Made by a program: the position numbers and the translations under genes. Below are positions 6,832 through 53,244 of a stretch of 64,000 nt of DNA, one piece after another. The stretch comes from a virus. The notes beneath the pieces were generated by a model. It was not told where the DNA came from, did no database searches, and was given only the letters and a program-made list of their open reading frames with translations. Where the stretch lies: the IMG/VR virus record IMGVR_UViG_3300027505_000001, positions 5,381-69,380 of that record, one strand, 5' to 3'. The number at the start of each line of letters is the position of its first letter. Within the stretch, counting starts at the first letter, position 1.

Positions 6832-6845
6832 ATGCCACGTGGCAT
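6832..6845. promoter_or_regulatory. Operator-like palindrome ATGCCACGTGGCAT
   Basis: Perfect 14-bp palindrome; member of the motif family repeated across the window. Confidence 0.7.
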
Positions 6846-6858
6846 AATGACGCACGCG

Positions 6859-7527
6859 CTACGACTCATCCAACCGGAACGCCTTCATGCACACCGGCGC
6901 CGCCATATACGCAAATTCCGCCAACGCCTTGGCGTATTGCTGTATTTCCCACTGCGCATGCTCATCATCGCGCAGTGTAATGAAGCGCAGCAAGTTCCAT
7001 AGATTTACCGTAGCAAACATGCGTGTGTACGTAGATAGTGGCAAGACGCAGCGAGCAAGCTCACGCGGCCAGCCATTTGCTATTAACGTTCTATATGCAC
7101 CAAATGAAAGTTCGCAACTTTCACTGTAATATACACTCGTTTCTACGCTATTAAGCGAAGTGTCAAATGTACGCCCCTGCTTATTATTTTTCGACTGCAC
7201 ACCAATCTTATCTATATCAGGAACATAGAACTCTTCTGCCAACTCCGTGTAGCGCGCAGACACCTGATTGTAGCTCCACGTCCTATGCCGCTGCCATTGC
7301 GCCACCACAAACAACGGAGCCTTGACTTCAAACGTAAACGTCACAGACTCGAATGGTGTACTGTGCTCGTTCTTCATTAGGTACTTAATTAGTTTCTCAT
7401 CGCTACCATCACCGCGCGGCTCCGCATCATACGACACGCGCGCGGATCGCACGACAGAAAGGTCGCTCCCCATGTTATCAACAAGGCGCACATAGCCGTG
7501 GTCAAGTACGTCGATCTTATCGATCAT
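6859..7527 (-). CDS. thyX: FAD-dependent thymidylate synthase
   Basis: EHSTPFE, ThyX motif RHRTWSYNQVSARY, RELARCVLP, HAQWEIQQYA. Confidence 0.97.
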   Translation of the reverse strand: MIDKIDVLDHGYVRLVDNMGSDLSVVRSARVSYDAEPRGDGSDEKLIKYLMKNEHSTPFESVTFTFEVKAPLFVVAQWQRHRTWSYNQVSARYTELAEEFYVPDIDKIGVQSKNNKQGRTFDTSLNSVETSVYYSESCELSFGAYRTLIANGWPRELARCVLPLSTYTRMFATVNLWNLLRFITLRDDEHAQWEIQQYAKALAEFAYMAAPVCMKAFRLDES

Positions 7528-7759
7528 AATCGTAATCCTCTTCGTCTGGTATAAGCTCCCTCACCTCTTCTCGAATATTTTTAAGAACATCTTCAATTCT
7601 TGTCATTCTCTCTATTAGACCTTTATTACTTTCTTCAAGACTAAGAATATCCAAGTATATGCGCTTTAGTTCGCTGGCGGCAAACTCAGGCTTTTCCCTT
7701 ACCATTCGTTCATAGTCGAACGCCAATAAGTTCTGTTTTTTCTCTCTGTAGGTAAGCAT
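7517..7759 (-). CDS. Hypothetical coiled-coil protein
   Basis: 80-aa ORF coupled to thyX. Confidence 0.55.
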   Translation of the reverse strand: MLTYREKKQNLLAFDYERMVREKPEFAASELKRIYLDILSLEESNKGLIERMTRIEDVLKNIREEVRELIPDEEDYDYDR

Positions 7760-7762
7760 TAC

Positions 7763-8254
7763 CTATTCCTCCGCAGCCGGCACATTCGCCAGGTCGTCGC
7801 GCCCAAGGTACGCTGCGCCAAGCTCGCGAAACAGATAGTCTATAATCGAAGACGCCATCTTAATGCGCTCACTTTCATGCACAACGCCTGCAGGCTCAAA
7901 CTTAGTTCCTACAAACGCCTCGACAAATTCCTCCAGCGGCACCCCATACTGCAAGCCTATCGATACGGACTTGGCGAAACAATTCCCGAATGCGCGAAGC
8001 GCGGCGCCGTCGCGGTGCATGTCGATAAAGATTTCGCCGAGCCTACCATCGGCGTATTCGCCAGTGTGAAGATAGATAGTGTGGCCACCTACCTTTGCCT
8101 TCTGATTCCAGCCTTTGCGTCTAGGCGGTAGACGTTCGCGGTTAGATATATGAACATCACAAAGATATTCAGTAAACCGCGACTTATCTGTGCTGATAGG
8201 CTCCATTTCGCCATACGACTCCGGATATGTAGGAATACCGACACATATAGCCAT
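7763..8254 (-). CDS. Class II RNR TSCPD-domain subunit (NrdJb-like, lacking the Cys tail)
   Basis: [41 protein letters not shown]...[17 protein letters not shown]...[12 protein letters not shown] matches the post-catalytic domain of alphaproteobacterial NrdJ. Confidence 0.88.
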
Positions 8255-8259
8255 TTCAT

Positions 8260-50927: not shown

Positions 50928-51080
50928 TCACTGTACGCTGTTGTTCTCGACGTTGAATGTCTCTGTAATTCTTACTGGCATGTCGGCTTCAATTTCCACT
51001 ATTAATTTTGTAAGAAGACTTCTTGGTCCTTTTACTCCTAACGCTTGATAAAGTTTTACTAAATCAACGTCTTTACTCAT
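50928..51080 (-). CDS. Small hypothetical protein (50 aa)
   Basis: MSKDVDLVKLYQALGVKGPRSLLTKLIVEIEADMPVRITETFNVENNSVQ*; not in the track. Confidence 0.45.
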   Translation of the reverse strand: MSKDVDLVKLYQALGVKGPRSLLTKLIVEIEADMPVRITETFNVENNSVQ

Positions 51081-51096
51081 TACGATTTCTGTCATT

Positions 51097-51990
51097 TTAA
51101 CCTATCTTTGCACTCACATTAACGGACGGCCCCGAAGTGGTCTGCACCGCGGCGTAAATTCCGTCGCTACCAGTTCCACCTAAGAAGACACTGCCGCTAC
51201 CTGGAGCGATTGAAATATTGCCGGTGCCTGTCGCCACAGATACGTTGCCGGTGCTAGAAGAAACAGCTACATTTCCAGTAGTGGCAGAAACAGCGACGTT
51301 GCCTTGATTGTCAAATGTGACGCTCTGCCCTAGCTTTGTGGTAAGCGTGAAGGTCTTGGCAACGCCGTCGAAGATGATTTCGTTGTGAACTGTATCGTTC
51401 GTTTCGTCGTCAACAATTAGAGTGAAACGTCGATTCTTTCCGTCAATCTTTATGTAGTTGTCAATTTTAGTGTTAGACGTTTTGCTTGTTGGAGCGTCGA
51501 ACGTCATAGCCTGATTTGGGCCGTCCATTAATATGGAGTCCCAAGTCTTATTATTGCCGGTACCAGTAGGCTTGTCAGTAAAAATCACTTGTCCATTTTG
51601 ATTGAAGTACATGGACGAAAGAGTGCTATGAATATAATTCAACTCACCAGCTTGCACGGTGCCGATAGGCTTTAACACGTCGTTAAATACCGCTTGCGAA
51701 AACGTAGCAGCTTCGCGGTCATCATCGTGGAATTCAAGCCACCCATGGTCGTTTATGTTTGGCGGCGAGTACCAGCCGAATTGATTGCCTGTCTGTAACG
51801 TATGTAACGGTATCCATCCGGTAAGCACAGGCTTCTGCGGATCGATAGAGTCCGGCATTAACTTAAGTTTAACAGCGAAAGTCTGCGGATCGAAGCTGTC
51901 TACAACTACCGGTGTGCGAGTTGATGCGCGGTGCTGAACGCGCATTGATTCGCCGTGTATGTAGTTGGCTAGTGCTTGAAATCCACTCAT
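51097..51990 (-). CDS. Baseplate spike/assembly protein (gpV/gp45-like)
   Basis: VVVDSFDPQTFAVKLKL...TGWIPL OB-fold start; C-terminal GNVxVxxxT beta-helix repeats. Confidence 0.8.
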   Translation of the reverse strand: MSGFQALANYIHGESMRVQHRASTRTPVVVDSFDPQTFAVKLKLMPDSIDPQKPVLTGWIPLHTLQTGNQFGWYSPPNINDHGWLEFHDDDREAATFSQAVFNDVLKPIGTVQAGELNYIHSTLSSMYFNQNGQVIFTDKPTGTGNNKTWDSILMDGPNQAMTFDAPTSKTSNTKIDNYIKIDGKNRRFTLIVDDETNDTVHNEIIFDGVAKTFTLTTKLGQSVTFDNQGNVAVSATTGNVAVSSSTGNVSVATGTGNISIAPGSGSVFLGGTGSDGIYAAVQTTSGPSVNVSAKIG

Positions 51991-53036
51991 TGCGACTGCG
52001 AGGCCGCGCCGCGCTGACTGTCTTTGTTGCGGCCGGTAATGTGCATTATATATCCACTATCCCAGCCGCAATGGTGCTCGATATCAGACACGATATAGGA
52101 CTGGTCGAACGCGGTGCCGGTACCAGTAAGCTGTATCGTGGAGTCGGCGCCGACACTTACGTCGCCGTACGTGGTTACGTTAATCGTGCGTTCGTGTGAA
52201 ATGATTTCATTTACGCGCGCCTGCGCCATCGCGTCCTGTTGCTTTTTAGTCAGATTAGGCGCCTTTAGCGAGTGGTCGAGCGTCCCACCGGTGCCTTCGG
52301 CAGTGTATGTAGATTGAATCGCCTGGCCCTGCTTGTGCTGCCACGACTTATGATTTACCGTTACAGTCTTCGCAAGATTGAGATTACGGCAACAAGAGAG
52401 ATGCAGCACGTCTCCCATTGCTGGGCTGTCGGCCGTAGGTGGCTGATAATTGATAGTGAAGGTACTGCCGCTAGCTTGGTCGAATGGAGCAATTGTAAGC
52501 GTTGTGCCGTTAACGCTGGCGATACAGCCAAGCTGCTTCGCCATCTTGACTATCATGTTCCAGTGCGAATCAAGCTCGCTAATGCGCGTAAAGTCGTCTT
52601 TGTATTGAAGGCCAGCCTTGTCGCCACCGGTACCTTTGAATTCAACGGATAGACCGGAACGCTGCGCTAAATCGCTAATTACGTCCTGCGGCTGTTTGTT
52701 TTTCCACTGCTCATTAGTTTTGCTGTCGATTGGGCCGCTAGTCATGTCACGGCCGGACACGTGGACGGTGCGCGACGCGAAGTCGAGTTCAACGTTATCG
52801 ACGTTACCTTGGAACAGTTGCGTGTAGCCACCGGACGAAATGTCATTCGTTCCCATGATGGTGACTGCAATCGGCGCGGTGCCGGCCCAGTACGACGCGC
52901 CTTGTCCGTTCGGGTCGTCAAGAGCGAACAGTGCGCTAAAAGTGTCGGCGGATTGGTGACATGAGATATGCACCGAGCACTCTATCGGCGCGTAACCGTT
53001 GACCATAAAGCGCGGCTGGAGCAGGAAGCCTGTCAT
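51987..53036 (-). CDS. Baseplate hub protein (gp44/late-control-D-like)
   Basis: QLFQGNVDNVELDFASRTVHVSGRD, DVISDLAQRSGL, GTGTAFDQSYIVSDIEH. Confidence 0.82.
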   Translation of the reverse strand: MTGFLLQPRFMVNGYAPIECSVHISCHQSADTFSALFALDDPNGQGASYWAGTAPIAVTIMGTNDISSGGYTQLFQGNVDNVELDFASRTVHVSGRDMTSGPIDSKTNEQWKNKQPQDVISDLAQRSGLSVEFKGTGGDKAGLQYKDDFTRISELDSHWNMIVKMAKQLGCIASVNGTTLTIAPFDQASGSTFTINYQPPTADSPAMGDVLHLSCCRNLNLAKTVTVNHKSWQHKQGQAIQSTYTAEGTGGTLDHSLKAPNLTKKQQDAMAQARVNEIISHERTINVTTYGDVSVGADSTIQLTGTGTAFDQSYIVSDIEHHCGWDSGYIMHITGRNKDSQRGAASQSQ

Positions 53037-53203
53037 TAGTCTTTAATGTGCCTGCCACCGCGTTCCACGATTACGTTCGCGCGAATTTCACCACCAGGTG
53101 TGTTCTGTGGCGTAATGTGGCCGACTGGCATGCGCTCCACAGCTGGGTGCACGATAGGATGATTTGGCGCGGCCATACCGCTTTTGTCGAACTGATTGCT
53201 CAT
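53036..53203 (-). CDS. Small hypothetical protein (55 aa)
   Basis: MSNQFDKSGMAAPNHP..., AAGGAA RBS, TAATG overlap. Confidence 0.45.
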   Translation of the reverse strand: MSNQFDKSGMAAPNHPIVHPAVERMPVGHITPQNTPGGEIRANVIVERGGRHIKD

Positions 53204-53215
53204 GAAAATTCCTTG

Positions 53216-53244
53216 TTGACAGGTGACACGGCTTGTGGCATAAA
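53216..53244 (+). promoter_or_regulatory. Antisense promoter TTGACA-N17-CATAAA
   Basis: Exact spacing with a GTGGCAT half-operator. Confidence 0.7.

Follow-up and report, generated by a model that had tools for sequence, protein, structure and literature searches.

A 14-bp palindrome, ATG(A/C)CA-NN-TG(G/T)CAT, is repeated over the early, replication and lysogeny genes of an uncultured phage from soil and is most likely the binding site of a phage repressor. The phage is represented by IMG/VR record IMGVR_UViG_3300027505_000001, a linear sequence of 69,469 bp, estimated to be 76% complete, whose source DNA is present in two soil-metagenome runs. The window analyzed here is the 64,000-nucleotide stretch covering bases 5381-69380 of that record, and all positions are counted from its first base. 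The predicted gene content is that of a temperate myovirus. We favor, with a probability of roughly 55%, the reading in which the palindrome is the operator of a dimeric phage repressor and the 237-residue protein encoded at 34162-34875 (plus strand) is the binder. A preliminary description of this DNA had proposed a distributed, multi-operator immunity system instead of a lambda-type switch. Such a dispersed regulon is still the best reading of the layout, with the palindrome heading most early transcription units and densest at the junction between the candidate repressor gene and the early operon.

A repeated palindrome over predicted promoter cores

The pattern ATGMCANRTGGCAT has 12 exact strand matches in the window, compared with 0.00 in 100 dinucleotide shuffles, and 50 matches compared with 5.6 when up to two mismatches are allowed. 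A symmetric weight matrix built from the sites finds 25 positions at 10 bits or more, against 2.8 in shuffles, and 23 strong sites, defined as those with at least 14 bits. Fourteen of the strong sites share one promoter geometry, namely 10626, 12094, 15391, 18107, 18631, 19014, 26595 and 33173 on the minus strand and 19913, 22241, 23257, 34043, 36038 and 50477 on the plus strand; the others are at 6832, 22229, 24404, 29446, 33161, 33960, 34031, 34882 and 35607. The repeat reported in the preliminary description is thus real, and every coordinate given there holds a recognizable site, although those at 33948 and 34081 are weak. Its list had left out the strong site at 18107, the weaker ones at 53344 (12.7 bits) and 56226 (13.6 bits), and degenerate tandem partners at 6820 and 24419. 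At 53235, where a half-site had been claimed, there is indeed the right half, GTGGCAT, only.

The strong sites are confined to 6832-36051, except for the one at 50477 in the baseplate operon, and no site occurs in the bases of the contig that flank the window. Although ORF (open reading frame) interior accounts for 79% of the window, only two of the 23 strong sites fall in the interior of a long ORF; the other 21 are in gene gaps or at gene ends. Five tandem pairs overlap by 2 nucleotides, at an offset of 12 bp (6820/6832, 22229/22241, 33161/33173, 33948/33960 and 34031/34043). In two of the pairs the -35 element is supplied by the left half of the upstream site, TTGCCA for 22229/22241 and TTGACA for 34031/34043, so that two bound dimers would span the whole promoter. 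The densest cluster lies, as the preliminary description had observed, beside the CI-like gene that encodes the 237-residue protein, with five sites in 33948-34094 and a further one, 34882, just past the stop codon of the gene.

In the 14 sites of common geometry, the final CAT starts a -10 hexamer exactly 17 nucleotides after the -35 element, an arrangement that had been noticed earlier and that our analysis bears out; the site then occupies -23 to -10. The -35 element is TTGACA or TTGACT in eight cases, TTGCCA, TTGCCT or TTGCTA in five and TTGAAT in one. The TG at site positions 9-10 falls at -15/-14 and forms, as TGnCAT, an extended -10 element, with T at -15 and A at -11 in 14/14 sites and G at -14 in 12/14. 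By these features the 14 are predicted to be strong extended -10 promoters of the sigma-70 type. The palindrome covers the spacer and the -10 element, which is the usual location of a repressor.

Several neighboring features bear on these promoter predictions. At four promoters an ATG stands exactly 7 nucleotides after the -10 element, at the predicted +1 (10614-10616, 18095-18097, 19002-19004 and 22264-22266), opening ORFs of 58, 175, 80 and 68 codons, three of which start with ATGGAAAC (Met-Glu-Thr). This coincidence suggests leaderless mRNAs and may give a hint of the host. Four promoters have a stable stem-loop starting within a few nucleotides of the predicted +1, and a good intrinsic terminator (12147-12126) closes the unit of the gene for a 1077-residue protein directly before the 12094 promoter. 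The promoter predictions look real because of this terminator-promoter junction, the ATGs at +1 and the stem-loops at +1. A generic sigma-70 scan of the window returned predictions at chance level only; it misses most of the motif promoters because it requires T at the last position of the -10 element.

The palindrome appears to be more than the promoter requires. Its left half, ATG(A/C)CA, falls within the spacer, a stretch in which sigma-70 reads no particular bases, and is nevertheless conserved to the same degree as the right half. Full palindromes also stand outside the standard register, at 35607, 29446 and 24404. The conserved left half, the occurrence of the palindrome without a -35 element and its use in a second register all argue for a dimeric DNA-binding protein.

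The motif is, with one exception, private to this phage. We searched for the composite promoter and operator, TTGAC-N7-ATGMYANNTGGCATA, a query that matches seven promoters of the window. It has 10 matches in IMG/VR, 103 in JGI metagenomes and 64 in 185,579 species genomes (GTDB, one per species), always with one exact match per locus; no genome has several, there is no clade signal among the species genomes, and the JGI metagenome loci add five weak extra copies to their 103 single matches. Two decoys whose left half was permuted had 3 and 19 matches in IMG/VR, which places the 10 real matches, and the composite-pattern counts as a whole, at chance. An apparent enrichment in Saccharibacteria (five matches) was rejected, at least two of the loci (L147 and L172) being one near-identical, apparently orthologous stretch.

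The exception is a 5.2-kb IMG/VR locus (L008) that carries AAA_24, DUF669 and helicase genes homologous to and in the same order as those of this phage, the helicases being 32% identical. Its early promoter, TTGACC-17-CATATT, has a perfect operator in the same register, and the divergent promoter of a gene for a 77-residue HTH_3 protein of the Cro/CI type, TTGACT-17-CATAAT, has a degenerate one. By sequence, L008 has the same operator design in a distant relative. A further 79 IMG/VR loci (1.09 Mb), found through the helicase at 52% identity or less, carry the replication cassette; they contain no motif site (two weak matches) and no homologue of the candidate repressor. When the closest relatives by helicase were searched de novo for different repeated palindromes, nothing convincing emerged. 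In this phage the motif is present on the replication cassette, on nucleotide-metabolism genes and on guide cassettes inside the tail operon. Its absence from relatives of the replication cassette indicates that it was installed across modules of different ancestry, which fits a phage-specific factor best.

The candidate repressor and the competing explanations

The 237-residue protein is the only clear transcription-factor-like protein found in the window. Its gene is divergent from the leftward early operon, with five sites between the two, which is the classic arrangement of an autoregulated immunity repressor. The protein matches Peptidase_S24 (E 5.6e-4, 20 bits, below the curated Pfam cut-off of 23.3 bits) and the repressor family phrog_4 (E 5e-4). 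In the ESM Atlas (score 0.95, 174 shared features) its ten best family-bearing matches are all Peptidase_S24, and some of its neighbors carry HTH_3 plus S24. Pfam found no helix-turn-helix (HTH) domain in it, and a profile search of the PDB returned only weak matches, to an MBF1-type HTH (E 0.04) and to the C-terminal domain of lambda CI. The single-sequence AlphaFold model is poor overall, with a predicted local distance difference test (pLDDT) score of 43; it has helices at residues 24-82 (pLDDT 60-78). Neither single-protein nor alignment-based searches of IMG/VR found a relative, and a word-based search returned the protein itself only. A full HMMER search of 1.84 billion representative proteins found three distant homologues (E 6e-5 to 3e-4).

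The protein is probably not self-cleaving. At the Ser position of the G-x-S-M-x-P motif it has His (GTHMSP), at the Lys position it has Arg, and the Ala-Gly of two of its relatives has no counterpart, a reading that is provisional since the alignment holds only four sequences of 25-30% identity. Across these four S24-like proteins the catalytic Ser position varies (His, Ser, Leu and Val), and all four have a conserved C-terminal motif, K-K-D/E-W-P. Together they may represent a small family of non-catalytic S24-like repressors.

According to the explanation that we favor, the early, nucleotide-metabolism, replication, lysogeny-side and guide-RNA units would each be read from a separate sigma-70-type promoter with its own operator. 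A dimer bound at -23 to -10 would block RNA polymerase, and the 237-residue repressor would in this way keep all operator promoters shut in the lysogen. The two medium-strength sites and the one weak site on its own promoter would provide negative autoregulation. As the Ser/Lys dyad and the Ala-Gly site are apparently absent, we infer that relief probably comes through an antirepressor or dilution, not through RecA-driven self-cleavage.

Several points weigh against this explanation. The repressor is assigned from the position of its gene and from weak, sub-threshold homology, and its structural model, described above, is poor. The sites have a promoter-oriented asymmetry, with A at position 4 in 11/14 sites but G at its mirror, position 11, in 13/14, and G at position 8 in 12/14, so that the right half is under double constraint and part of it is an extended -10 promoter signal, not an operator signal. 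Between the L008 HTH protein and the HTH of the 237-residue protein, the only common feature is the recognition-helix pattern S-x-x-S-K/R-Y-I/L-x-G-K-x-G (BLASTP E 0.04), and this pattern is common in XRE-type HTH domains. Finally, small families of the composite motif occur in two unrelated phage contigs, G001 (two copies) and G003 (three copies).

The explanation that survives best after this one is that the operator is bound by another phage protein, of the Cro type or with a role in early shut-off, encoded for example by small ORFs after 33928 or in 34908-35605. In a variant, the CI-like protein and such a protein would use the sites jointly, like CI and Cro at the operators of lambdoid phages. 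The operator-adjacent protein of L008 is a short HTH_3 protein without an S24-like domain, the early region of this phage has about 20 small ORFs without a family match, and the presumed HTH of the CI-like protein was missed by Pfam, all of which would suit a different binder. The L008 protein, however, has no homologue anywhere in this phage; the only other ORF with a sign of an HTH is that of the exonuclease-like protein, which has a weak HTH_8 match; and the sites cluster on the CI-like gene's own promoter. We consider a different phage binder unlikely.

Less probable still is a host transcription factor site borrowed by the phage, in the manner of LexA boxes or NtcA sites, by which the early genes would follow a host signal. 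In its favor, G001 and the T7-like G003, which have no protein in common with each other or with this phage, show the composite promoter motif 5' of DNA polymerase and ribonucleotide reductase genes. The chance frequency of the composite pattern in IMG/VR, JGI metagenomes and species genomes counts against it, as does the clustering on the repressor gene's promoter, which suits a phage factor better. One decoy match, moreover, brought its own second copy, so chance families of multi-copy promoters are to be expected, and we discount G001 and G003 as selection bias. To our knowledge the motif fits no known LexA, NrdR, Fur, CRP/FNR or PhoB consensus, which also speaks against a host factor.

G003 (IMGVR_UViG_3300031251_000043) is a complete 44.6-kb T7-like lytic phage with its own RNA polymerase. 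Its three promoters of this kind, TTGAC-N6-AT(G/A)CCA-NN-(T/A)GGCAT, are at about 9764, 15176 and 16955; one of them is internal to the ribonucleotide reductase gene, and the other two stand ahead of that gene and of the DNA polymerase gene. We judge the likeness to be due to chance.

It is very improbable that the motif is a pure extended promoter consensus, its palindrome an accident of TGnCAT and a conserved spacer. The right half does coincide with the extended -10 element, and positions 8 to 11 are orientation-specific and fit the extended -10 consensus TRTGn, including the G at -16. The left half, however, mirrors the right half from within the spacer, the palindrome at 35607 and the terminator-embedded one at 24404 have no -35 element, the 14-mer is used in another register at 29446 and 33960, and five tandem copies keep an exact 12-bp offset. 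We rejected a further reading, in which the phage's Tas-like protein, directed by stem-loop RNAs, would target the motif in a form of RNA-guided self-repression: RNA-guided repressors of the TasA/TasR kind have been described (bioRxiv 10.64898/2026.09.09.750476) and the phage encodes a Tas-like protein with at least 12 guide-like units, but none of the 20 extracted 11-nucleotide spacers matches the operator or its flanks, and spacer matches elsewhere in the contig are at the estimated chance level.

Guide-like units and other features of the window

The operators that we ascribe to the CI-like protein are present on several predicted guide-RNA units. Ten stem-loop units, whose 11+8+11 loop has the core TGATACCT, lie within 36653-37896 and at 50527, 53276, 53556 and 53619. 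Two further tigRNA-like units, missed by the core scan, emerged when the 15391 and 12094 leaders were aligned. These leaders (15305-15384 and 12008-12087, both minus strand) are paralogous and form long stem-loops in which GUGGACGGUGAG pairs with CUCACCGUCCAC; in the 12094 leader, an 11+8+11 loop with GGC/GCC closure holds the TGATACCT core. The protein encoded at 36848-37702 resembles viral Transposase_20-like clusters (score 0.98, template modeling score 0.79) and phrog_4285. Together, the stem-loops and this protein appear to match the description of stem-loop TIGR-Tas systems, whose units have two variable segments of about 11 nucleotides on either side of a conserved core and stand beside a Tas protein of the Nop / IS110-C-like kind. 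In such systems guides occur within the tas gene as well as upstream and downstream of it, and transcription is repressed under RNA guidance by nuclease-free TasA and by catalytically inactive TasR (bioRxiv 10.64898/2026.09.09.750476).

The preliminary description had placed guides, effector and integrase under the same control as the nucleotide-metabolism genes, and this holds in part. Full operators stand on three single-unit guide cassettes (12094, 15391 and 50477) and on the 36038 promoter before the main array. The Tas-like gene and the integrase gene have no site of their own, so any control would reach them only through read-through that starts at the 36038 promoter. At the satellite guide promoters 53216 and 53344 there are weak sites over the -35 element only (7.1 and 12.7 bits), and these guides may therefore escape control. 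That the guides act in lytic growth, as had also been suggested, holds only on the condition that the lysogenic repressor is what binds. A bolder proposal, which we put forward as possible but rather doubtful, is that an RNA-guided, nuclease-free Tas-like system is wired into the immunity circuit. Its promoter-operator-guide cassettes (the 12094 and 15391 leaders and the antisense unit at 50477) would be silenced by the same non-cleavable repressor, and the guides would be made only after infection or induction, adding a programmable second layer to the lytic program, while the 53216/53344 guides might stay on in the lysogen.

The coordinates of the sites and of the main genes are collected in Table 1. 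A megablast search found no close relative of this phage among GenBank phages, and no relatives of its primase-polymerase were found in IMG/VR.

Table 1. Predicted genes, promoters and operator sites in the window (spacer lengths in nucleotides between -35 and -10 hexamers; ORF, open reading frame)
Positions	Strand	Feature	Setting or remark
1191-2549		Large terminase gene	
6820-6845		Tandem pair: perfect palindrome 6832-6845 (24.1 bits) and degenerate 6820-6833 (7.6 bits)	Same-strand gap between thyX and packaging/head genes; promoter direction ambiguous
6859-7527	-	thyX	
8260-10449		Class II ribonucleotide reductase gene	
10614-10651	-	Predicted promoter TTGACA-17-CATATC, operator 10626-10639	Ahead of 58-aa ORF (10440-10616, ATG at +1), then class II ribonucleotide reductase gene
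10648-11184		Deoxynucleoside monophosphate (dNMP) kinase gene	
12008-12121	-	Predicted promoter TTGACT-17-CATATC, operator 12094-12107	tigRNA-like stem-loop, core TGATACCT, a few nucleotides past predicted +1
12164-15397		Gene for 1077-aa protein	No Pfam or PHROG match
15305-15418	-	Predicted promoter TTGACT-17-CATATC, operator 15391-15404	Paralogous stem-loop leader (z = -6.2), then gene for 1077-aa protein
15409-16611		Exonuclease-like protein gene	Weak HTH_8 match
18095-18132	-	Predicted promoter TTGACT-17-CATAAG, operator 18107-18120 (21.6 bits)	175-aa ORF, ATG at +1
18631-18656	-	Predicted promoter TTGACA-17-CATATA, operator 18631-18644	
19002-19039	-	Predicted promoter TTGCCT-17-CATGTT, operator 19014-19027	80-aa ORF, ATG at +1
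19901-19932	+	Predicted promoter TTGACA-17-CATATA, operator 19913-19926	5' of DNA methylase gene
19956-21281		DNA methylase gene	
22229-22266	+	Tandem operators 22229-22242 and 22241-22254; -35 TTGCCA, -10 CATATT	68-aa ORF, ATG at +1
23245-23276	+	Predicted promoter TTGCTA-17-CATGCT, operator 23257-23270	5' of 23264-24004 gene
24404-24432	-	Site 24404-24417 (19.8 bits) and degenerate 24419	13-pair hairpin with T-tail, just past primase-polymerase stop
24422-26620		Primase-polymerase gene	
26595-26620	-	Predicted promoter TTGAAT-17-CATAAT, operator 26595-26608	5' of primase-polymerase gene
27483-29141		Helicase gene	
29446-29459	-	Operator (18.7 bits)	Different register: TTGACT-17-TATGCC, site about -11 to +3; between methylase gene and next gene
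29464-30225		DNA methylase gene	
31717-33129		DUF669 and AAA_24 genes	
33161-33198	-	Tandem operators 33173-33186 and 33161-33174, -35 TTGCCT	5' of AAA_24 / DUF669 / helicase cassette
33948-33973	-	Tandem degenerate operators (8.8 and 14.2 bits)	Over presumed leftward early promoter of gene 33533-33928
34031-34094	+	Predicted promoter of CI-like gene, TTGACA-17-CATATG	Tandem operators 34031 and 34043 (14.8 bits each); weak 34081 (8.2 bits) in leader
34123/34162-34875	+	Gene for predicted HTH plus S24-like (CI-like) protein	
34882-34895	+	Operator (20.2 bits)	Overlaps TTGACG -35, non-standard spacing; ahead of three small ORFs (34908-35605)
35607-35620		Perfect palindrome ATGACACGTGTCAT (22.6 bits)	Operator site; neither strand has a convincing promoter
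36026-36057	+	Predicted promoter TTGACT-17-CATGAA, operator 36038-36051	Heads 182-aa ORF, main stem-loop array, Tas-like gene (36848-37702), integrase gene
38113-39183		Integrase gene	
39442-64000		Sheath and baseplate genes	
50465-50565	+	Predicted promoter TTGACA-17-CATATT, operator 50477-50490, one stem-loop unit (core TGACACCT)	Self-contained, antisense in baseplate operon
53216-53310	+	Predicted promoter TTGACA-17-CATAAA, stem-loop unit (z = -4.3)	7.1-bit site over -35; right half-site GTGGCAT at -10

Some of these features have a particular arrangement. Directly downstream of the two operator sites at 6820/6832, within 6788-6845, the minus strand has a promoter-like TTGACT-17-AACAAT with a TG; relative to it the two sites would be centered near -45 and -57, a position typical of activation or of a roadblock, not of occlusion. 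The 24404-24432 element, at a convergent gene junction, could be a terminator and a repressor site in one. The promoter at 33948-33973, TTGCAT-16-TATTCT, and its other register were read by eye. The gene at 23264-24004 has a weak C-terminal DUF3489 match.

Comparison with known repressor systems

P1 and the Cluster A mycobacteriophages already exemplify a single repressor that acts on many dispersed operators, and the logic alone is unsurprising. What the analysis provides is a testable regulon map for an uncultured soil phage, with about 18 predicted promoters, an operator and one candidate repressor. The same operator on promoters that would fire straight into tigRNA-like stem-loops would be a first hint of timing in a phage-borne TIGR-Tas-like system. 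With its consensus -35, 17-bp spacer, extended -10 and, in four cases, an ATG at the predicted +1, this is an unusually clean set of promoters that may help to identify the host.

Like the lambda-type CI and LexA proteins, the candidate would place an XRE-type HTH before an S24-like beta domain; as for lambda-type CI, its gene and the early lytic operon diverge and operators lie over both divergent promoters, consistent with autoregulation. The operator of phage 434 is likewise a palindrome of 14 bp. Unlike in lambda, there is no three-site OL/OR switch with antitermination, and about 18 independent promoters would each be gated. The candidate also differs from self-cleaving S24 repressors in that the Ser reads His, the Lys reads Arg, no Ala-Gly is aligned and the Pfam score is below the cut-off. 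In the Streptomyces phage phiC31, the repressor binds a 17-bp inverted repeat at many early-region loci near early promoters; sequence, host type and repressor family differ from those considered here.

Cluster A mycobacteriophage repressors such as L5 gp71 and Bxb1 gp69 are described as having numerous genome-wide sites with a motif private to the immunity group (PMC9283540, PMC6550527), and the many putative repressor sites over this genome, with their private motif, resemble that pattern. Stoperators are asymmetric, bound by monomers and act mainly by halting elongation inside transcription units (PMC9283540). The sites of this phage are, unlike transcription-oriented stoperators, inverted repeats over promoter cores, with 21 of the 23 in gaps or gene ends, and only 35607 and 24404 could act as roadblocks.

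The closest logic is that of P1, whose 22 C1 operators are dispersed over the genome (PMC8546580). This phage, too, has a repeated specific sequence, private to it, with about 20 operators spread over predicted early promoter cores, including the promoter of the candidate repressor itself, so that one repressor could serve many early promoters. C1 is described as not self-cleaving and as inactivated non-covalently by the antirepressor Coi (PMC8546580), and relief without cleavage would match the apparent loss of the S24 dyad here. The two systems differ in that P1 has asymmetric operators of 17 bp, ATTGCTCTAATAAATTT, to which C1 binds in a monomer-like manner, whereas this phage has a 14-bp palindrome and a candidate of the HTH plus S24-like type. 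They also have no sequence relationship, and P1 is a plasmid prophage whereas this phage encodes an integrase. The likeness to P1 is one of regulatory layout, that of a single repressor with many dispersed operators, and not one of family membership.

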